Shown piece by piece: positions 51,634 to 64,000 of a stretch of 64,000 bases of DNA (positions within the stretch are counted from its first letter, which is position 1; each line of letters opens with the position of its first letter). The stretch is from Promethearchaeota archaeon. GTDB lineage: Archaea > Asgardarchaeota > Lokiarchaeia > Sigyniarchaeales > SOKP01. The stretch is taken from the NCBI GenBank assembly GCA_048939995.1, contig JBHLOY010000003.1:160001-224000 (forward strand). The letters run 5' to 3'. Under the pieces are notes generated by a model. It was not told the DNA's origin, made no database searches, and saw nothing but the letters and a program-made list of their open reading frames with translations. The translations under genes were made by a program, and so were the position numbers.

Positions 51634-53805
51634 TTAAATTTCAAATATCACTTGCTTTGTAAGAATATCTAACTTTTGGAGTTTTTTATTCATAAAAATC
51701 CTCACTTTTGACGAGCTAATTTTAGGATTATTAAAAAAAAGATCTTGAACAACAGTTTCATACTTTTTTCCCTTATTAGCTAATTTTCGATGAACTGGAT
51801 TTTCATTATTGTAAATTGGTATTGGAAATGAAAAAGGTCTTTTATGGATATGGCGACTGGATTTGATTAATCTTATATTCTTACTGAGTATATTAGAATT
51901 AAGAATTGATGATAGAAAGTATGCTTCATTTGCCAAGTCAGTGGAAAGATAATAGTTTTCAGACCCTATTATTACATCTTTTTCTTGATTATCAAGGACT
52001 GCTGCCTTAATCATCGAACCGCTGGCATTATATACAACAATGAAACGTTTATTATGATATTGCTTTGAAAGTTTATTCCAATAATTAAGGTTTGAAAATA
52101 AAGTCTGAATTTTGCTTGTAGTTTTCTTCTTGTTTTGGTAAATTTCATTTAGCTCATTATATAGCTTAAACGCTTTGGGGTATCTTTTTAGATACAAGAC
52201 ATTAAATTCAAATTTTTCATCAATAGGTAAAAACACATTCCTTAGTTTCTTTATATAAAATGGAATTAAATCTATATTCAGAAAGCTTTGAAAACTAAAT
52301 CCTTTTTCTATTTCTCTATGTTCAAATTTAAAGAACCAATTTTTCTTAACTCGAGTTAAAATGTCTAGATCTGAGGATATTTCAAGAAATTTACTAGTTT
52401 CATGATCAATTTTAAAAAATACAAGACTTCTTGGAACTAAGGTAGCTCCTTGAAAAAATAAATTCTTGTATCCACTTACTGAAAGAGCATTTAGGTCTTT
52501 AATCTGTTTTTCAGGAAGTATTATTTTAGCACCATTTTTTTCTAGTTTAATAGTATCATATAACGCTGTTTCTTGGAGTTCCAAATTATCATTGAAAATT
52601 TTTGTAGGGATAGGATATTTATTTGAAATAGATTCTTCACTAAATCTCCCATTATATCGTGCTTTAAGACATATATGGTCGACATTAAAGAAATAGTTCT
52701 TTGGAAAATCCCAAATCTCTAAACTATCAAAAGTAGTAAACTTTCTGAACTTATAACAATGATCTCCGTTAAGCACACTTTTTGTAATTACAAAGAAGAT
52801 TTTTCCCCTTTTTTTTAAATATTCTCTTGGAATTGCATAAAAAAATATAGATGCTAATTCAATATGAGTAATGTATTGACTTGGAGGTTTTATACTTAAA
52901 GAATCAGCTAGCTCTCTAATTTTACGTTGGTAGGTCTTATTAAAAATATCTTTATATGTAAGCCATGGAGGATTTCCAATAACTAAGTCAAAAGAGTTCT
53001 TCAAATTATAGTTATTTTTTTCTGCTTGCATAGGGAAAAGTGTATCCATATAATTTAATGTAGGTCCCTTTAGTTTAGGTTCATTAGGGTTAAAAAAATC
53101 TAAGATAATTAGCTTGAGATTAACTTTAGCAGTCAATATAGCTATTGGATTAACATCAAATCCGTAAATATTGTTAATTGCATCAATCTTTTCATCATTT
53201 GGTTGCTTAGAATTTAATATTTTTAATAGGATCTCAATTAAAAATTTGCCTGAACCACATGAGGGATCTAAAACCTTTTTCCCTATTTCATAAAAATCTT
53301 CAACCATCATTCTCACTAAATTACTAGAAGTATAGAATTCTCCTAATCGATGTCTAGTTACAGGGATAATAATTTGTTGGTAAAGTTCATGAAATAAATC
53401 TTCATATGAAAAATCGACGTTATTTAAAATTTCATGTACCTTCTCAAATGTTGTATGAAACAATGAATTTAGATTAAAAACTTTAAATTCGTCAAAGTCA
53501 TCTTTCAACACTTCATAATAATGTTTCTGGGCATTTGGAACTTGTACCCCCCTCATTTTTTTTGTTAGAATTAGTCTTAGAATTTGAATATAATAGGAGT
53601 ATTTAATGAATAAATCATAACTAAGTTCAAGACCATTAACTTTCCGAAATAGAGTTTTAAAACCATTGAACTTCCCTTGTAATTTACTTCCTTTTCCAAC
53701 TTTTTTCTTTAAAAGGTTTTCAATTTCTTCTTTATAAATTTGGGAGTTTAATCCAAAAAATTTTACAATATAATCAGAATTTATTACTTTTTTATCCTCA
53801 ACCAT
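51634..53805 (-). CDS. Gamma-class N6-adenine DNA methyltransferase with target-recognition region (type IIG-like, no clear nuclease domain)
   Basis: GEFYT, LDPSCGSGKF, GFDVNP.A, GNPPW; C-terminal YFLSSILNS...HIHK...PIP. Confidence 0.85.
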   Translation of the reverse strand: MVEDKKVINSDYIVKFFGLNSQIYKEEIENLLKKKVGKGSKLQGKFNGFKTLFRKVNGLELSYDLFIKYSYYIQILRLILTKKMRGVQVPNAQKHYYEVLKDDFDEFKVFNLNSLFHTTFEKVHEILNNVDFSYEDLFHELYQQIIIPVTRHRLGEFYTSSNLVRMMVEDFYEIGKKVLDPSCGSGKFLIEILLKILNSKQPNDEKIDAINNIYGFDVNPIAILTAKVNLKLIILDFFNPNEPKLKGPTLNYMDTLFPMQAEKNNYNLKNSFDLVIGNPPWLTYKDIFNKTYQRKIRELADSLSIKPPSQYITHIELASIFFYAIPREYLKKRGKIFFVITKSVLNGDHCYKFRKFTTFDSLEIWDFPKNYFFNVDHICLKARYNGRFSEESISNKYPIPTKIFNDNLELQETALYDTIKLEKNGAKIILPEKQIKDLNALSVSGYKNLFFQGATLVPRSLVFFKIDHETSKFLEISSDLDILTRVKKNWFFKFEHREIEKGFSFQSFLNIDLIPFYIKKLRNVFLPIDEKFEFNVLYLKRYPKAFKLYNELNEIYQNKKKTTSKIQTLFSNLNYWNKLSKQYHNKRFIVVYNASGSMIKAAVLDNQEKDVIIGSENYYLSTDLANEAYFLSSILNSNILSKNIRLIKSSRHIHKRPFSFPIPIYNNENPVHRKLANKGKKYETVVQDLFFNNPKISSSKVRIFMNKKLQKLDILTKQVIFEI

Positions 53806-54574: not shown

Positions 54575-57157
54575 TCAAATTAACTTTTTCCAAGGTTTTC
54601 CGAAAAGCACATAACTTGAAATAGCTAGAGAGCTTTGTAAGTCAATACTTACACTTCCTTGTGAATCGCTTATATCCTTAAACTTGCTTTCAACAAGCTT
54701 AGTTACTTTATTAGCCATACATGCTTGTCGAGCTTTTAAAAGAGCTATCCCTTGGTTCTCTTTATTAAATAAGTTTATATAAAAATTAGCGTTAATTTCT
54801 TTTGTCTCATCATCAAAAATAGGATAATTGCGTGTGACAATACCGGTAATCTTCTCATAATCAAACTGTTTTCCGACTTCTCCTAAAATATGTGGAGCAT
54901 TCCTAATTTTGTTCCCATTAATATCAAAAACTTGGGTATTGAAAAATAAAAACGGTTGAATATTTGTGTTATTTCTTCTTATCGAATCTTGGATTTCTTT
55001 TATTGTAAGTATTTGACTATCATTAGTAATAAAGAAACTATCATTTGGATTCCAAGGAGAATAAAAGAGATTTCCTACAAAATGAATAATATGATTTGGA
55101 ACATCCATAATATGTGATAAGATAGCTTTTTTTGTTGAGTTTATTCCCGTAAGTATGGTTATACTTTCGATTTCCTTTACCTCATTAAAGAACTCCGTAA
55201 TAAAGTTTAATTCATTAGCGCCAGAGACAAATGGAAAAATTAACTCTTTATTTTTCGTAGTTTCATTCCATTTAAAAGGTCCTTGAGTATTTATAGAGTC
55301 AATCAATAATATATGATATTTAATGGGTGGAGTGTTAATTTCATTCCCTCCTTTTATATCCTGTTCAAAAGTGACACCACCTAAAGGTGGTTCTCCAATT
55401 ACATACCCTATTGAATATTTCAATAGAAAGAAATTATTATCATAAACTAACTCGAAAGGAATAGTCATTTGATCCAATATAAAATAGATTTCTGGTATAA
55501 ATGTTAGAGTCTCGATCTCAAACTGCTTTAATAGTTTTCTTATTGGTTTGGGAAGAAAAATGAATAATAATTTTCCAAATTCCATAAGATTAAAGTCATA
55601 TTTCTTGACTTCATGATTAGAAAAGATATCATTATAAATTTCATTAATTTGAGTATCATTCCAATATTCATTTAAAACTTTTCCATTAATTACTTTTCCA
55701 TCTTTTGACATCATTCTGTAAGAGATTAGCCCTTCTTTATTAATTCTAAGAATTATTTGTTTAATTATGAATTGATCTAATTCGAAATGGAATGATTCCC
55801 CCTCAAATGAATAAATATTTTGTTGCAATAATTCCGTCTCATGATATAATACAGCAGGATCTAAGATCATAGATTTGAGGTTTTTATCTAAAAACGGAAT
55901 AATTTTACGAGCAAGATTATAATCTTCTTCTTCAAATAATGCGCGATAGAACATTGTGCGCCAGAAATCTCTAGGTTCCAACGAAAAAAACATAGAGTTA
56001 AATTGCCAGAGATAATTACATGTATAAAAATAATGAAAAATTTGTGAATTACTCTCGGGTATCTTTAAATGATTATTCAATTTTTCAAGAGATTGTAGGA
56101 GAAAACTTTTTTCTTTCATATCAACAAAATTTTTACAAGCCTCAACCCATAATTCAATTAAATTATTGTCGTATCCTAAATCTGTTTCAGCAATAAATAT
56201 ATCTTCAAGAAAGTCATAAATTTCGAAAGCTATTTCAAACCTATTCCGCGTAATAGCGAAATTTATGTAACTTCTGATATAGGTTATAGCATCAACGAAA
56301 GATTGAAACTTTTTGATCTTTTCAAAAAGAATCTTTACAATTACTAAGATCCAAGAGAACTCTCCAATATTATTCAAGTAATAGATTAACTCTTCAAGAT
56401 CTACCAAAATCTCTTTAAAATTTCTTTCATTTATTGATACTCTACTTAACTTACCGAACTCATCCTTTAAATATCCTGGAAGGCGATTAACTAAAATTTT
56501 AGTCATAATTTGTACAAAATCAGATGAGTCTTCCACCAAATTATACTTAGAATTTATATTTTCTAAAAAAATATACAAAAACAAGGCCCTTTTATTAGGT
56601 TCTAATTTAAATAGAGTTTTTCCTAATATTTCAGTACTAAAATGAAAAAATTCTTGAGGTATAACAGATTTTCTCAAATACATTAATAGAATCTGCAATT
56701 CAATTAATTTCTGATACTCCTGCTTCTCAATAACCTTTACACAAAAAGAATTTATATATTTGGTAATCCCTTGTTGGGATAAATCATCCATTTTAATGAA
56801 TGATTGAAGTAGTGCAGTTCCAAAATTATTAAAAATATAAAAATCATCTATTTTTGATAAAAATGAAAAGAATCGTTTATAGGCATCAACATATTTAATC
56901 ATATCGATATCTACTTTTCCTTCTTTTCTTTGAATCAAAGAATTAATGTACATCCACCAAGAATTTGATATAATCATCATTAATTGATGCTTTTTCTGAA
57001 TGTCTAGCCATTCAGTTTTTTCAACCTCAAAATAAAGATCAGTTAGCAGTCTATCTGCCCATCTATGGTTCCCAGATTGTAGCAAACGCCTACCTTGTAT
57101 TACTTTTTGTTGGAAATCCTCTAAAAAAGTGCTTTTTTTATTTAAGATAGTTGTCAT
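54575..57157 (-). CDS. Helical-repeat (TPR-like) protein with a degenerate C-terminal CHAT (caspase-fold) domain
   Basis: FG..LF..LP, LD...IPFEL.YD...FL..KY.IG, E...I, IIHFVGN, FFNTQ, F...FY..L, G.AL..AR and YVLFG.P. Confidence 0.72.
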   Translation of the reverse strand: MTTILNKKSTFLEDFQQKVIQGRRLLQSGNHRWADRLLTDLYFEVEKTEWLDIQKKHQLMMIISNSWWMYINSLIQRKEGKVDIDMIKYVDAYKRFFSFLSKIDDFYIFNNFGTALLQSFIKMDDLSQQGITKYINSFCVKVIEKQEYQKLIELQILLMYLRKSVIPQEFFHFSTEILGKTLFKLEPNKRALFLYIFLENINSKYNLVEDSSDFVQIMTKILVNRLPGYLKDEFGKLSRVSINERNFKEILVDLEELIYYLNNIGEFSWILVIVKILFEKIKKFQSFVDAITYIRSYINFAITRNRFEIAFEIYDFLEDIFIAETDLGYDNNLIELWVEACKNFVDMKEKSFLLQSLEKLNNHLKIPESNSQIFHYFYTCNYLWQFNSMFFSLEPRDFWRTMFYRALFEEEDYNLARKIIPFLDKNLKSMILDPAVLYHETELLQQNIYSFEGESFHFELDQFIIKQIILRINKEGLISYRMMSKDGKVINGKVLNEYWNDTQINEIYNDIFSNHEVKKYDFNLMEFGKLLFIFLPKPIRKLLKQFEIETLTFIPEIYFILDQMTIPFELVYDNNFFLLKYSIGYVIGEPPLGGVTFEQDIKGGNEINTPPIKYHILLIDSINTQGPFKWNETTKNKELIFPFVSGANELNFITEFFNEVKEIESITILTGINSTKKAILSHIMDVPNHIIHFVGNLFYSPWNPNDSFFITNDSQILTIKEIQDSIRRNNTNIQPFLFFNTQVFDINGNKIRNAPHILGEVGKQFDYEKITGIVTRNYPIFDDETKEINANFYINLFNKENQGIALLKARQACMANKVTKLVESKFKDISDSQGSVSIDLQSSLAISSYVLFGKPWKKLI

Positions 57158-57184
57158 AAACTTAAACTCTTTTTTATTTTGGTG

Positions 57185-58327
57185 CTATAAATTTGGGTTC
57201 TCAATCCAACCTTTATCTAACTTTTCTTTAGTATATAATATTGATGCACCTATCCATCCCATATTTTCTCTGCCAGAAGCCGCTATAACTTTAATTTTGT
57301 CTTTTATTTTCTCAGAGAAGTATTTTTGTAATTCAAATTGAATTCTCTTATCTAATCCAGTGATCAAACTTCCACCTCCTGATAAAATAATATTCCCCAA
57401 TAAATCTTCCCAATTTTCTCTTTCCCAGGTCTTAATTACTTTTGAAATGGATTCTGGAAGACCTATATAATCTACATGAGCAAGTTTTGGATTGAATAGG
57501 GGTTCAGATAATAGAAACCGTTCTAAATTTATTTTTAAATCAGATCCATCAGGAAGATCTATTACTCTATCATATTTCGTTACTCCCCCTTTCACTTTTT
57601 TTAGCTCTTCTTGAGGATTTAGCACACATAATGACAATTTTTCTTTAATTTCTTTTGCAATTGATTTATCAATATAGACATTTTTTGATGTGCCAATACG
57701 GGTTAAAATTAAATTCAAAAAGTAACTTGTCAAATCTTTACCGGCAATAGGAAAAACATCTCGGGCCATTATATTGGTGAAACCATGAAATATTGTAGAT
57801 ATATAAGTGTTAGATTCTCCCATACTCACAATAACCCCACTAGCTTTTTGAAGTGTGGAAAGAATAGCTTGACTTTCATGCAAAAAAAGGAGGTATGGAA
57901 ATTTTAATGAATTAAAAAATAAGTGTTGTAATTTCGATTTCTCTAAATCTGACATGAAAAAAGGAGATATGATAATTAAAGGGTGCTTAAATTGATCTTC
58001 TTTATTGATTTTTAGCTGTTTATAATAATGTAAAAAGAACTTAAGCAAAATGTTAAAATTGTGTTCTTTTTTAAATTCATGAATTTTTAGAATATTTTGA
58101 TATTTCAGTGCCTGGTGTCCTACCAAATGAGGTGTCTGATCATTCTGAAAAAATAATTCTTCTAGGCCCTCAATGACATCAGAAGAGAATAAATAATCAG
58201 AAACGTCAACATATACACTTGGAGCAATAATATCTGGAAAATCTTCACCTGCCCATCCTATTCTTGAATTTGCGGTCCCAATATCAAGGATTAAAGGATT
58301 AGTCTGATCTCTTAATTTCGATGCCAT
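57185..58327 (-). CDS. Actin-related protein (divergent Asgard actin/ARP)
   Basis: ILDIGT..SRIGWAGED.P....PS, AG.DLT.Y, EIKEKL, LPDG..L....ERF..SEPLFNP, NIILSGG.S...GL..RI..EL and WIGASIL. Confidence 0.92.
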   Translation of the reverse strand: MASKLRDQTNPLILDIGTANSRIGWAGEDFPDIIAPSVYVDVSDYLFSSDVIEGLEELFFQNDQTPHLVGHQALKYQNILKIHEFKKEHNFNILLKFFLHYYKQLKINKEDQFKHPLIIISPFFMSDLEKSKLQHLFFNSLKFPYLLFLHESQAILSTLQKASGVIVSMGESNTYISTIFHGFTNIMARDVFPIAGKDLTSYFLNLILTRIGTSKNVYIDKSIAKEIKEKLSLCVLNPQEELKKVKGGVTKYDRVIDLPDGSDLKINLERFLLSEPLFNPKLAHVDYIGLPESISKVIKTWERENWEDLLGNIILSGGGSLITGLDKRIQFELQKYFSEKIKDKIKVIAASGRENMGWIGASILYTKEKLDKGWIENPNL

Positions 58328-59138: not shown

Positions 59139-59540
59139 TTATTCTAATGGAAGAACTTCTACTTTTATAGCCTCTCCTTTTTCTCTTAGAACTTTTCTAA
59201 GCTCGTCAAGATTATCTGGGCTTTCAGAAATCACTGTCCATTCAGCAGTCTTATCTTTTTCGATAATTACTGCTTCACTATACATCATACTAAGACCTTG
59301 TTCCCCAAACGTACCAGCAAGTTTTGCAAGCGCTCCTGGAACATCTTTCATAGTTATTCTTAGCTTTATTGGCCTTTTTTCATCTGATAAACCTATAGGC
59401 GTAATCTTAATTTCTTTATTTTCTGAATCAGCTACTAACATTAGCTGAGAATTCGTTGTAAGGCCCAAACTCTTTCGAATTAACTGAGGAATTACAATTC
59501 TGCCTCTATTATCAATTGTGATCACTCTGACTTCTTTCAT
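59139..59540 (-). CDS. AbrB/MazE-type DNA-binding domain plus ACT domain regulator
   Basis: ID.RGRIVIP..IRK.LG and D.PGALA.L ACT motif. Confidence 0.88.
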   Translation of the reverse strand: MKEVRVITIDNRGRIVIPQLIRKSLGLTTNSQLMLVADSENKEIKITPIGLSDEKRPIKLRITMKDVPGALAKLAGTFGEQGLSMMYSEAVIIEKDKTAEWTVISESPDNLDELRKVLREKGEAIKVEVLPLE

Positions 59541-59718: not shown

Positions 59719-60108
59719 TTATTCTTGAATTGCTTTTAAATGAGCTTTTGCATTGAGTGGTAATAAAGGTGCACATGCCATGAGTTTACTAACATCTCCT
59801 TCAACAACGTATGATCCAGACATAGTTGCCTGAATTGGGTCAGATTCTCCCGAATTAACTTTCTTAATCGTTTCAAAGTTTGTCTTATGAATAATTATTG
59901 GAACTTTAGTCCCCGAATATTGACCCATTCCCCAATCCATCTTACTTTTATTAATGAATTGCCAGTAACTCATCTCTGGTTTATCAGTAATTTTATATTG
60001 AAATACCAATGGTGCAACTGGTTCTAATAGTTGTGCTAAACCTTGTAACTCATTATAGGCTTTCATGAAACGTGAAAGATATTGTTTCCATTCTTCTTTT
60101 GTCTCCAA
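59719..60108 (-). CDS. SCP2 (sterol carrier protein 2-like) lipid-binding protein
   Basis: G..DP.QA.MSG...VEGD...LM signature; strong SD GGAGGTGA (60117-60124) 8 nt before TTG 60108; the track start at 60261 is the alternative. Confidence 0.8.
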   Translation of the reverse strand: METKEEWKQYLSRFMKAYNELQGLAQLLEPVAPLVFQYKITDKPEMSYWQFINKSKMDWGMGQYSGTKVPIIIHKTNFETIKKVNSGESDPIQATMSGSYVVEGDVSKLMACAPLLPLNAKAHLKAIQE

Positions 60109-60253
60109 ATTTATTTTCACCTCCTTTATTTTTTGATTCTTAATTTTTGGTTTGTTAAAATTGATATGATTAATTATAATGCCTTTTTCACTGACTTTTT
60201 GAGTCATTAGTTCTATATCATATGTTGGAGATCTTATATCCTCTACTTCTTCA

Positions 60254-60397
60254 TTACTCATGCAATTTAAAGGATCTATTGCTTTCTCTATTAAGAAATA
60301 TAATATATCCTATCCGAAGGGTTGAGGAACCAATTGAAGTGTAATTGAAATGATCAAATTTGTTATTATTGTAATCTCTAGTAGTTATAAACTTCAT
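60254..60397 (-). CDS. Possible small ORF (47 aa) inside the biosynthetic cluster
   Basis: Manual translation MKFITTRDYNNNKFDHFNYTSIGSSTLRIGYIIFLNRESNRSFKLHE*; co-oriented with the cluster; only a weak SD. Confidence 0.25.
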   Translation of the reverse strand: MKFITTRDYNNNKFDHFNYTSIGSSTLRIGYIIFLNRESNRSFKLHE

Positions 60398-60443
60398 ATT
60401 TATTGATTTCCCTTGATTATTTTAATTTTTAAATAGAGATAAT

Positions 60444-61616
60444 CTACATATAAGAATCAAGGCCCGCTTTACAACCCATTCCTAAGAAATCTACCATCGC
60501 GCCGTTATAGTCATTTTCGATTTTATAGTAAAGACCTTTATTTGTAAATGTAACTCCCCAAATGAACTTACTTGATTTGCTTTGAAGTGGAGTTTTCTCA
60601 ACAAAATCTTTCATTAAGGGATGTAAATGCACTGGAACCTCCTTTGGGTCATCACACGCCATCCCAAAGCACAAACGTTCTAACTCTTCTGAAGTCCAAT
60701 TAAAAGTAAAATTTAGATGGACTGCTTTACGACAACTTTCCATTATTTCGCTAGAGGCGGGCTTGAGTCCTAAGTCCTCAACAAGTGCAATAGTGCTTTC
60801 GTATAGGGATCTAGCAGGCTGCTTAAGCATAAAGTAAATATTGGTGGTATTATGCAAGAAATCAAATGCAAAAAGACTAAATGCTGTTAAACCATGTTTA
60901 TCAAAGTATTCTCTATAATTTTTCATACTTTCTGGGATTGACTTCATCGTATAAATTGGATCTATGGAACCTGGTACTATGAATGGCCAAATCTTTGATA
61001 AACCACTTGTTGCATCTATATCCACCCCATAACCCATTATATCAAATGTGTTTATAACCTCTACTATCATATCATGGATAGGATGTCCATTCTTCTCGAT
61101 TAATTTTTTATTTACAGCTGTAGTATAAGGATCTGGATTATGAGGGATAAAGAATTCAACATATCGTACGGCTACATCTCTTTTTTCGGCTGGTTTTGTT
61201 GTTGTTCTCATCGATATTGGTGCCCCTCTAAAGAATTTTTCATAAGCATTTAATGTCCTCCAAATAGCTTCTTCATTAAATGCTACTCTAGTAAAATTAC
61301 AAATAATTGAAATATCCTTTACCATCTGAGTGAGATCTGTATTGCATTTAAAATTAGATTGTACCTTTGGTAGGTATTTATCATAATTTATTCCAAGCTT
61401 TTGTAGATCTCCTATCATAGTTGGTTGAAAAGCTGGAGGGGTTACTTCAAACAAAGCTACTACTAAATCAATCTCAGCTACTTCACTTCCATTGCGTTCT
61501 ATACATTTTTTTTCCGCAGCTTCAAAAAGTGCTGGTCTTACAGCTGGTCTCACCATTTCTGGGATTCCTAAAATTACCTTCTCAAAAAGGCTTTTTACTT
61601 CTGGTTGCCATTTCAT
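60444..61616 (-). CDS. ABBA-type (CloQ/NphB, PT-barrel) aromatic prenyltransferase with N-terminal PCP_red/DUF2621-like helical domain
   Basis: L.AY..FF, MRTTT.P...RD..VRY, DPY..A, YGVD.D...GL.KIW.F, S.FAFDF...T.NIYF, F.W.S...ERLCF and YYKIE.DY; N-terminal W..E....F......IP..VR......AE. Confidence 0.8.
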   Translation of the reverse strand: MKWQPEVKSLFEKVILGIPEMVRPAVRPALFEAAEKKCIERNGSEVAEIDLVVALFEVTPPAFQPTMIGDLQKLGINYDKYLPKVQSNFKCNTDLTQMVKDISIICNFTRVAFNEEAIWRTLNAYEKFFRGAPISMRTTTKPAEKRDVAVRYVEFFIPHNPDPYTTAVNKKLIEKNGHPIHDMIVEVINTFDIMGYGVDIDATSGLSKIWPFIVPGSIDPIYTMKSIPESMKNYREYFDKHGLTAFSLFAFDFLHNTTNIYFMLKQPARSLYESTIALVEDLGLKPASSEIMESCRKAVHLNFTFNWTSEELERLCFGMACDDPKEVPVHLHPLMKDFVEKTPLQSKSSKFIWGVTFTNKGLYYKIENDYNGAMVDFLGMGCKAGLDSYM

Positions 61617-61645
61617 TTTATTTTAACCTCTTCTATTTTAATTAA

Positions 61646-63061
61646 TTAATTTTGATATTTTGCAAATTGAATTTGGCTCAATTCAGCAAACCCTTCTGGA
61701 TTATTGAAACCAAGACCTGGCATCATCCATCTTGGATTTTTCTCACCATATTGCCTCAATAGGTGGAATAAGTCTGTCTCTTTAATTTGTGGTGATATAT
61801 AAAACCTAGGTTTTAGTAAATTCTCATTCTGTTGTATTATTCCCTCTTCTTCAGCAATACGTTGAAGTGGAGTATGGGGGTAGATTCTCATCCCTATAAA
61901 TATGATAACATCTCCATCACCTTGCCATAGATTTCTCTTATAGTTTTCTAAAGTTTCTAACCGATCTAACGAGATTCTAATACTTTTAAGAGTCTCTCCT
62001 GGGCCTCCAACAATAACATGTATCAATTGTTCGATTCCTAAATCAAAGCACTTTTTTGAAGTAAGAATCGCATCATCTGAAGTTCTTTCTTTATTCATAT
62101 TTTTTAACATCTCTTCAGAAAGAGATTCTATACCCGTAGCAAAGTGAATAGCACCACTTTCTCTCATCATCGGCATTAAATCAAGAAATTTTCTACTAGG
62201 AACGTAATTTGCTCCCCAGTTAATATCAATTTTTTGTTTAATAATCTCTTGACATGTTTCCTTTACGTGATCATAATTTAAGTTGAATAAACTATCTACA
62301 ATAAAAATATTTTTAATTCCATAATTGTTTATTATTATATCTAATTCTTCTGCAATGTTTTTCGGAGATCGATAACGAACATTGGACCCTTCTATGTATT
62401 TATAACTACAATAAATACAATTCATTGGGCAACCGCGTTTAGTTTGAATATTAGCCCAAATCGGACCCGATTTTTTCATAGGATCAATAAGGTATGCATC
62501 ATTATCTATTAAGGCCCTTAATGGAAAAGGAAGTTCATTTAAATTTTCAACTCGCCATGGTGGACTTTGGTGGTATTTACCCGTATTGCTTAGAAAGCAT
62601 ACACCGCGTTCAATTTTTTTGGGATTCTCATGATTTTTAATCTTTTCTAATATTTCAGCAAATACAAGTTCACCATCCCCAACAACGCCTATATCGTGCT
62701 TTAAATCACGTAAAATCTCCTCCGAAAAAATAGAAAACCCTGCTCCACCTAAAATTATTGGAATATGGGGCTCAACTAGTTGTTTAAGGTATTGAAGAAT
62801 ATTTTTAACGGGTAGATAAAAAAATAGATTCCCAGGATAAGTAGTTGAATCGACATTTCTGATCGAAAAACCTATTACGTGAGGATTAAAGTCATATATT
62901 GCTTTCGAAATATCTTGTTTATAATTATTACTTAAAGTCAAATCTAGTAACTTCACTTCATGACCTCGATTCATTAAGAAAGAAGCTAAATATGCTTCTC
63001 CTATTGGAGGTACCATCACATGGACTATCTCTCGACTTCCAGAAATTATTAACACTCTCAC
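61646..63061 (-). CDS. Cobalamin-binding radical SAM enzyme (class B; TsrM/lipid-associated type)
   Basis: PPIG.AYLA, GFSIRNVD, GG.GFS, G.GE, QTKRGCPMNCIYC, GIESLS and GGPGET. Confidence 0.9.
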   Translation of the reverse strand: MRVLIISGSREIVHVMVPPIGEAYLASFLMNRGHEVKLLDLTLSNNYKQDISKAIYDFNPHVIGFSIRNVDSTTYPGNLFFYLPVKNILQYLKQLVEPHIPIILGGAGFSIFSEEILRDLKHDIGVVGDGELVFAEILEKIKNHENPKKIERGVCFLSNTGKYHQSPPWRVENLNELPFPLRALIDNDAYLIDPMKKSGPIWANIQTKRGCPMNCIYCSYKYIEGSNVRYRSPKNIAEELDIIINNYGIKNIFIVDSLFNLNYDHVKETCQEIIKQKIDINWGANYVPSRKFLDLMPMMRESGAIHFATGIESLSEEMLKNMNKERTSDDAILTSKKCFDLGIEQLIHVIVGGPGETLKSIRISLDRLETLENYKRNLWQGDGDVIIFIGMRIYPHTPLQRIAEEEGIIQQNENLLKPRFYISPQIKETDLFHLLRQYGEKNPRWMMPGLGFNNPEGFAELSQIQFAKYQN

Positions 63062-63090
63062 AGTTTTTCTACCCCAATTAATCTCTAATG

Positions 63091-63999
63091 TTATTTTTCA
63101 AGTAATTCAATTTTTTTAGCCACATTAACTTCATGTTTGTGATCATTTTCATGCCAGCAGAATGGAAATGAGCCAAAGAAATCTCCAGTAATATATTCTG
63201 CAGTTACTCGACAACCACCACCGCAATATTTGAGGTGATGACAATCTGCACATTTTCCTCTAATCTTTTTTCTATCACGAATATCCTTATATAGTTGGGA
63301 ATTTAATACATCTTCAAAATTATCCTTTAGGGCATTTCCTAACGTTAAAGAGGTAGGGTATCCCGCAGGATAAATAGTTCCATCTATTCCAATACCCATC
63401 ATTGTTCTACAAGCTAAACACCCTACCCCCCATTCAATTGCAGCCAATTCCTTGTCATCTTGTGGTTGTTCCATAAACGGAACCATATCATAAATTTCAT
63501 AGGCAGGTAGTGTGCCAGCTTTACCTTTTCTTATCGTTTCAATTGCATGCTTATATTTAAAATTATACATTTTTTTATATTCTTCTGTACTAAGCCCTAT
63601 TTCATTCCAAAATTGAGCTGCTCGATTTTGTTTAACTACACATCTAAAATATGGTTGTGAACCCCATCTCTCAGATAATTCTTTAAGTTCTTCTAATTCA
63701 TCAATATTTTGTTTCATGACTGTTATTGATGAACATACAAAAATCCCATACTTTAAGCAAAGATCTATAGCCTTTTTGGCATATACTAAGGAATTTGAGA
63801 ATCCTCGTATGTGATCATTCTTTTCTGGGTCTGCACTGTCAAAACTAACAAATATGTGACTAATATTATTAACTTTGCACATTTTAGCAAATTTTTCATT
63901 AAACTGAACTCCATTGGTGATAAGAGCATGAATATAGTCTTTTTCTTTGCAAAATCTCATGATCTCACCGATATCTTTTCGCAAGGTAGGTTCACCACC
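63091..63999 (-). CDS. Radical SAM/SPASM-domain protein, 5'-truncated by the window edge
   Basis: Frame is open to the edge (GGEPTLRKD); TNG, S.D....HD.IRG; SPASM C..C and CADC....YCGGGCR...C. Confidence 0.88.
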   Translation of the reverse strand, partial: GGEPTLRKDIGEIMRFCKEKDYIHALITNGVQFNEKFAKMCKVNNISHIFVSFDSADPEKNDHIRGFSNSLVYAKKAIDLCLKYGIFVCSSITVMKQNIDELEELKELSERWGSQPYFRCVVKQNRAAQFWNEIGLSTEEYKKMYNFKYKHAIETIRKGKAGTLPAYEIYDMVPFMEQPQDDKELAAIEWGVGCLACRTMMGIGIDGTIYPAGYPTSLTLGNALKDNFEDVLNSQLYKDIRDRKKIRGKCADCHHLKYCGGGCRVTAEYITGDFFGSFPFCWHENDHKHEVNVAKKIELLEK

Positions 64000-64000
64000 A

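Follow-up and report, generated by a model that had tools for sequence, protein, structure and literature searches.

The operon and its predicted product

The four genes at positions 59719-64000 of the window, a 64,000-nucleotide stretch of a Promethearchaeota archaeon genome (assembly GCA_048939995.1, contig JBHLOY010000003.1), are the tail of a larger conserved operon in Loki archaea. On balance, this operon probably works without O2 to make an aromatic lipid or specialised metabolite that is prenylated, hydroxylated and in some cases methylated, and that is not a respiratory carrier. The folds, the residues and the gene linkage are direct observations, and we infer every chemical step. The pathway is real and conserved, and apparently undescribed. 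No description of the cluster was found in the literature, with subscription papers mostly outside the search, and no ABBA prenyltransferase pathway from archaea was found in the literature searched. An earlier note on this DNA, made from the letters alone, knew of no characterised pathway of this kind in Asgard archaea, and no paper on one was found.

The window lies on contig C28 (160001-224000) of a 3.75 Mb genome that is 98% complete, and its closest homologues carry the labels Promethearchaeota or Lokiarchaeota. The four open reading frames are all on the minus strand. In operon order they encode the 3' part of the radical SAM enzyme D-SPASM2 (63091..64000), the cobalamin-binding radical SAM enzyme B12a (61646..63061; PF02310 and PF04055), an aromatic prenyltransferase of the ABBA (CloQ/NphB) family (PT; 60444..61616, 390 amino acids) and an SCP2 lipid-binding protein (59719..60120, about 133 amino acids). 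The gaps between them are 29, 29 and 182 bp, which bears out the co-oriented arrangement with 29-bp gaps described in the earlier note. The cluster also runs past the window, as that note had observed. The full SPASM2 gene (L001:8092-9489; Radical_SAM and SPASM domains) encodes 465 amino acids, and it is preceded on the same strand by a second SPASM radical SAM gene, D-SPASM1 (L001:9502-10869), by U32a with a C-terminal D domain (L001:10991-12400), by a 56-codon remnant of B12a (L001:12437-12607) and by a small membrane protein gene, MEM (L001:12749-13444). The whole order is MEM, B12 remnant, U32a, SPASM1, SPASM2, B12a, PT and SCP2. The U32 gene and the shared 85-residue D domain had been missed before, and SCP2 probably starts near 60120.

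In each of the 27 fetched PT loci, further genes of the operon are present as far as the contig reaches, so the linkage that had been proposed as a check is conserved. Co-occurrence was counted in 135 genomes of the window's family, 29 of them with PT. Since related genomes are not independent, the numbers are given as counts and not as tests.

The prenyltransferase

PT matches PF11468 with an E-value of 3e-53. Its closest characterised relatives are EpzP (E 6e-33) and FamD1, AmbP3 and AmbP1 (about 1e-32). The predicted structure (pLDDT 95, pTM 0.91) fits AmbP3 with a TM score of 0.92 by target length, and most structural matches, which share a ten-stranded PT barrel, superimpose at root-mean-square deviations of 2.2-3.1 A with 19-28% identity. 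According to this model, PT has the PT-barrel fold, located at about residues 92-385. The earlier assignment to the ABBA family, for which a barrel prediction had been proposed as a check, is supported by the model and by the intact catalytic residues.

The residues were mapped with the EpzP analysis of PMC3485228 and an alignment of PT with EpzP. The diphosphate cage of EpzP (R49/K117/R232/K283/N172/Y174) corresponds to R137/K208/R314/K365/N259/Y261 of PT, all of which are invariant among 85 homologues, and the conserved set also takes in R151 and E367. E367 replaces EpzP A285, the position of the CloQ base E281 (PMC3485228), and the position of EpzP Y220 is N302. The Arg at the EpzP R49 position (R137) is present, as in Mg-independent members of the family, so PT probably acts independently of Mg. 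K350 is near-invariant and may bind an anionic acceptor. Thus PT shares the barrel, the diphosphate cage and the CloQ-type Glu base with AmbP1, AmbP3, FamD1, EpzP, NphB and CloQ (PDB 5YK9, 5Y4G, 5YNT, 4EE6, 1ZB6 and 2XLQ), but differs from them by its low identity, a fused D domain, an archaeal anaerobic host and the Asn in place of EpzP Y220. In the proposed first step, PT would form a prenyl cation, probably without Mg, and alkylate an electron-rich ring, with E367 as the base as in CloQ. PT is a single-copy gene in its genome. Its D domain is fused at the N-terminus, and elsewhere the order is PT-D or D-PT, or D is missing.

A protein or peptide, with MEM or D as the substrate or carrier, might be modified instead, as in a RiPP-like (ribosomally synthesised and post-translationally modified peptide) or lipidation system. 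Peptides are frequent substrates of SPASM and B12 radical SAM enzymes, D stands alone directly beside PT in the short locus L100, and MEM is constant in the Loki copies. However, in structure comparison PT resembles small-molecule enzymes far better than it does the peptide prenylase LimF, neither a PqqD/RRE domain nor a short conserved precursor turned up at the loci, and MEM is missing from L077, L030 and L101. A peptide product is therefore considered highly unlikely.

Copies outside the Asgard archaea

An indication of donor and acceptor comes from contig L077, whose host is probably clostridial, judging from its gene types and the PT tree. It carries on one strand a methyltransferase gene, two HemN-like genes, three U32-D genes, three D-SPASM genes, a PT gene without D, an isopentenyl diphosphate (IPP) isomerase gene (168.8 bits, cut-off 127) and a gene for a chorismate mutase/3-deoxy-arabino-heptulosonate 7-phosphate (CM/DAHP) synthase (429.5 bits, cut-off 279). 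It thus holds the U32/SPASM/PT set without SCP2 or MEM. The short loci L051, L100 and L106 consist of D, PT and IPP isomerase only, and their PTs form one clade with that of L077 (support 100/100). The PT of L051 clusters with Acetivibrio clariflavus proteins.

In the second step, the donor would probably be dimethylallyl diphosphate (DMAPP), giving a C5 chain, because IPP isomerase is linked to PT. The acceptor would probably be chorismate-derived, because CM/DAHP synthase lies beside the L077 PT; a phenol of the 4-hydroxyphenylpyruvate or hydroxybenzoate type is a guess. Chorismate synthase and chorismate mutase are both present in the host genome. The product had earlier been proposed to be a prenylated, methylated aromatic lipid. 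The prenyl-aromatic part is likely in view of the isomerase and CM/DAHP synthase genes beside the bacterial copies, but the methylation appears to be optional.

On contig C28, beyond the window, a chorismate mutase domain was found at 3778-4008 in an open frame of 117 codons, versus 357-378 codons in four relatives; this gene is possibly split or frameshifted.

Other copies are scattered. The Thermoplasmata genome CP070629, the single carrier in a sample of 37 from its class, has D, U32, SPASM, SPASM-SCP2 and PT-D spread over two loci. Metagenome contig L072 has the order B12, D, U32-D, D and B12a, followed by a split UbiA-family gene at the place of PT, and this replacement was counted in favour of prenylation. 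Other bacterial D-PT genes lie apart from the cluster, several of them with degenerate active sites. At L106:710-3699 and in P0136/P0143, tandem D-PT pairs have lost catalytic residues in one or both copies, which suggests pseudo-enzyme partners. In the metagenome locus L048:199-8556, a D-PT homologue is located beside genes for methyltransferases, an ABC exporter and an AstC-like terpene cyclase; this may be a meroterpenoid cluster. A bacterial locus without PT or D (L091:4891-19192) contains two related U32 genes, several B12 radical SAM genes and a gene for a CrtI-like protein.

The partner enzymes

U32a matches PF01136 (E 2e-15) and has conserved cysteines for an Fe-S cluster, ten of which are invariant (57, 153, 163, 167, 195, 199, 314, 318, 321 and 324). 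U32 proteins are tied to prephenate-dependent hydroxylation (PMC10990095, PMC6747719). According to PMC10990095, most U32 subfamilies have no assigned function, and a direct in vitro demonstration of this reaction for U32 proteins was still lacking. The characterised relatives hydroxylate aromatic rings without O2 and need prephenate (PMC10990095, PMC5727448). SCP2 (PF02036, E 1.5e-5; alignment of 33 sequences) belongs to the same domain family as UbiT (PMC6747719), and in relatives it forms fusions with PT, U32c or SPASM3. By analogy, in the third step SCP2 would hold the greasy intermediates, as has been proposed for UbiT (PMC6747719), and U32a, in many genomes together with a U32b/U32c pair, would hydroxylate the ring with prephenate as the O donor.

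The nearest known system is UbiT/UbiU/UbiV (PMC6747719, PMC10990095). Both have SCP2 beside U32 Fe-S proteins, U32-SCP2 fusions, paired U32 proteins, a prenylation step and a prephenate supply in the host. In contrast, the present cluster uses a soluble ABBA prenyltransferase instead of UbiA and includes SPASM and B12 radical SAM enzymes and the D domain; U32a differs in its Cys spacing and by an extra C-terminal Cys cluster; the operon is without UbiE, UbiG and UbiD; and its hosts are without the quinone-using subunits searched for. Neither the UbiU motif CX6CX16CX38C nor the UbiV motif CXnCX12CX3C (PMC6747719) was found in U32a. The cluster may thus work like UbiT/UbiU/UbiV plus a soluble prenyltransferase, but it falls outside that system, because the Cys spacing differs and the other parts of that pathway are absent.

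This likeness also bears on the option, raised in the earlier note, of a membrane electron carrier in the form of an unconventional quinone or phenazine. A prenyltransferase with U32 and SCP2 parallels UbiA with UbiU/V and UbiT (PMC6747719), the U32b/U32c pairs resemble the UbiU/UbiV pair, and a UbiA-family gene takes the place of PT in L072. However, NuoH, Sdh cytochrome, NarI/HdrE and NrfD were not found in three PT carriers that are 92-100% complete, including the window's own genome (NDH-2, ETF-QO and SQR were outside the search). NuoH occurs in none of the 29 PT genomes and in only four genomes of the family. Cytochrome bd-like proteins were found in two of the 29, and none in the window's own genome, and matches to NiFe cytochrome b are only weak. 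The same genome has no futalosine-pathway MqnA/MqnD (PF02621), and its sole UbiD sits among mevalonate-pathway genes. The patchy carriage and the C5 chain suggested by the linked isomerase also argue against a carrier. Because the carriers are without the quinone-reactive membrane subunits that were searched for, a respiratory quinone is an unlikely product, and an electron carrier of any kind is improbable.

The SPASM enzymes carry CxxxCxxC and the SPASM auxiliary-cluster cysteines, one of which is replaced in most SPASM2 copies. Their best curated NCBIfam matches are AhbD, NirJ and AhbC, with at best 139 bits against a cut-off of 500, and the cut-offs for MftC and PqqE are not reached either. 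They have the cysteines in common with AhbC/AhbD/NirJ and MftC-type SPASM enzymes, but differ in scores far under the cut-offs, an N-terminal D and the lack of a heme or peptide-precursor context. These matches, the likeness of D to the BchI lid and PCP_red, and the two HemN-like genes in L077 would fit a pathway that modifies a tetrapyrrole or other cofactor. On the other hand, scores of about 139 bits against 500 are unspecific, and AAA+ lid bundles such as the one that D matches (Z 9.4 or less) are common. A tetrapyrrole is also far larger than the known ABBA acceptors. A role in cofactor modification is thus very unlikely.

B12a combines a B12-binding domain with a radical SAM domain, the class B architecture, and its CxxxCxxC is invariant. 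It is a probable C-methyltransferase by these features; some class B members do chemistry other than methyl transfer. The best NCBIfam match is TIGR04072, a lipid-biosynthesis family (279 bits, cut-off 360), followed by BzaD (209 bits, cut-off 450). B12a shares the architecture of both but is under both cut-offs, and the operon has no fatty-acid synthase or cobamide genes. MEM has no family match in profile searches.

Distribution and modular composition

PT was found in 32 of 161 Lokiarchaeia genomes and in 0 of 239 other Asgard genomes sampled. Within the Asgard archaea it is therefore found only in Lokiarchaeia, and a pan-Asgard cluster is ruled out. NCBI labels such as Thorarchaeota are contradicted by genome placement: records labelled Thor-, Hermod- and Hodarchaeota (L009, L007 and L015) match G197, G258 and G204, which are genomes of the window's own family. 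Carriage is patchy even inside one genus, and existing Loki cultures may not carry PT.

U32a is present in 28 and SPASM2 in 25 of the 29 PT genomes, and the PT carriers without one of them are on short contigs or contig ends. PT is present in 25 of 26 SPASM2 genomes, and the sole PT-less case is at a contig end. In four genomes (G207, G172, G174 and G260), of which two are 98-100% complete, the cluster is contiguous and includes MEM, SCP2 and U32a, but PT and SPASM2 are both absent. These results indicate that PT and SPASM2 are one optional module on a MEM/SCP2/U32 core, in which the U32 hydroxylase-like protein is more constant than PT. B12a is absent from the contiguous loci L016, L017, L029 and L033, so methylation is optional. 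Variable extras include U32b/U32c pairs, SPASM-SCP2 fusions and further B12 enzymes. In the fourth step, SPASM2 would act on the prenylated product, because it tracks PT, and SPASM1 on the shared scaffold, possibly by oxidative decarboxylation or ring closure. B12 enzymes would methylate the product in an optional fifth step.

The modular composition could also mean that the core (MEM, SCP2, U32a, the B12 enzymes and SPASM1) hydroxylates, methylates or cross-links an existing ether lipid or glycolipid of the membrane, and that PT and SPASM2 add a decoration. Consistently, MEM, SCP2 and U32a are retained in the PT-less clusters, genes for a CDP-alcohol transferase, GT2, a LuxE-like ligase, a sulfotransferase and a hexapeptide acyltransferase flank many copies, and the best model for B12a is the lipid-biosynthesis family TIGR04072. 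However, the flanking genes are unlinked in the window's own genome (contigs C13 and C31) and absent from L077, the known U32 substrates are aromatic rings (PMC10990095), and the bacterial L077 has U32, SPASM and PT without SCP2 or MEM. Lipid tailoring is therefore regarded as unlikely.

Several findings weigh against the aromatic, prenylated product proposed here. The PT-less clusters mean that prenylation by PT is not the core of the system. L077 is a single contig, and the four isomerase-linked loci are one clade and not independent cases, so that they make up one line of evidence. The CM/DAHP synthase of L077 could simply supply prephenate to the U32 proteins, and chorismate synthase, present in 127 of the 135 family genomes, does not discriminate and is uninformative as a co-occurrence marker. 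E367 is widespread in the PT family and does not fix the acceptor. Every radical SAM match falls under its family cut-off, and the Cys spacing of U32a is unlike that of UbiU, UbiV and RlhA.

In the same genome, the locus L047:8158-16724 on contig C13 contains CDP-alcohol transferase, GT2, LuxE-like ligase, SPASM, hexapeptide acyltransferase and deacetylase genes. It is a probable glycolipid island, which flanks the cluster in many relatives. At L009:17792-20355 and L060:7926-10462, FAD-oxidase (GlcD-like) and CCG Fe-S genes occur in or at the end of the cluster together with a divergent SPASM4 and SCP2.

The D domain

The helical D domain is at the N-terminus of PT (61362..61616), SPASM1 and SPASM2 and at the C-terminus of U32a. 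In the window's own genome, D occurs nowhere else except in one relic on contig C13, where it adjoins a related B12 gene. In other genomes D is C-terminal on PT, duplicated or stand-alone. Its fold is an AAA+ lid-like or PCP_red-like helical bundle. A Foldseek search of D alone against the Protein Data Bank gave no significant match, and a wider fold search gave common helical bundles only. Against the Pfam models for DUF2621/PCP_red, the own copies score 16-22 bits (cut-off 27.7) and two homologues 30 and 47 bits; against DUF2621 clusters the Atlas score is 0.95. D shares with DUF2621 (PF11084) and PCP_red (PF08369; PDB 2KRU and 2L09) its small size and an AAA+ lid-like helical bundle, and its profile matches to them are weak. 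Unlike them, it serves as a movable module, attached at one end or the other to enzymes of three unrelated families or encoded by itself. It could have no catalytic role and instead link the enzymes to one another or to the intermediate. A constant need of D for SCP2 is ruled out, since L051, L072, L077, L100 and L106 carry D without SCP2 in the locus.

The C13 relic (L046:7534-9295) consists of a B12b radical SAM gene followed by an 83-residue D-only frame. B12b usually precedes the cluster, and the relative G262 keeps a full U32a-D at the place of the relic.

Broader implications

It is conceivable, and suggested here only tentatively, that the operon stands for a new class of anaerobic natural-product or membrane-lipid pathways, which Lokiarchaeia would have in common with clostridia-like bacteria and a Thermoplasmata lineage. 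In these pathways an AAA+ lid-like tag would gather unrelated radical SAM, U32 and PT enzymes on one intermediate. The product would be the first known Asgard metabolite of the prenylated aromatic type, and it would extend prephenate-dependent hydroxylases to a further class of substrates. The cluster supplies soluble enzymes with which such hydroxylation can be tested in vitro. The clostridial cassette of D-PT and IPP isomerase is a tractable entry that needs no Asgard culture, and Acetivibrio clariflavus, which is in culture, likewise has a PT of this type in its annotation. An unknown lipid-like metabolite is predicted in about a fifth of Lokiarchaeia and could serve as a sediment biomarker.

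Gene calls and neighbouring genes

The longest open reading frame of SCP2 starts at 60261. The true start is probably near 60120, because a GGAGGTGA ribosome site precedes it and the homologues measure 125-135 amino acids. U32a probably starts with an ATT behind a GGTGA site; this layout is also found in two other genomes (L003 and L099), which rules out a frameshift in the gene. The GC content at third codon positions is inside the genome's range for most cluster genes and above it for U32a (0.30), and this check gave no sign of recent horizontal transfer. A promoter and terminator scan of the cluster gave matches at chance level.

Directly downstream of SCP2 on the same strand (59139-59540), a 133-residue fusion of an AbrB/MazE-type DNA-binding domain and an ACT domain is encoded. 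It is possibly a metabolite-sensing regulator, and its gene adjoins SCP2 in just three loci. At 54575-58327, an actin-family gene (PF00022, E 2e-48) lies beside a gene for an 860-residue protein with a CHAT-like domain, a pair that is kept downstream of the cluster in L003 and L007. At 51634-53805, a 723-residue protein with an NPPW motif resembles type IIG restriction-modification methyltransferases by sequence.

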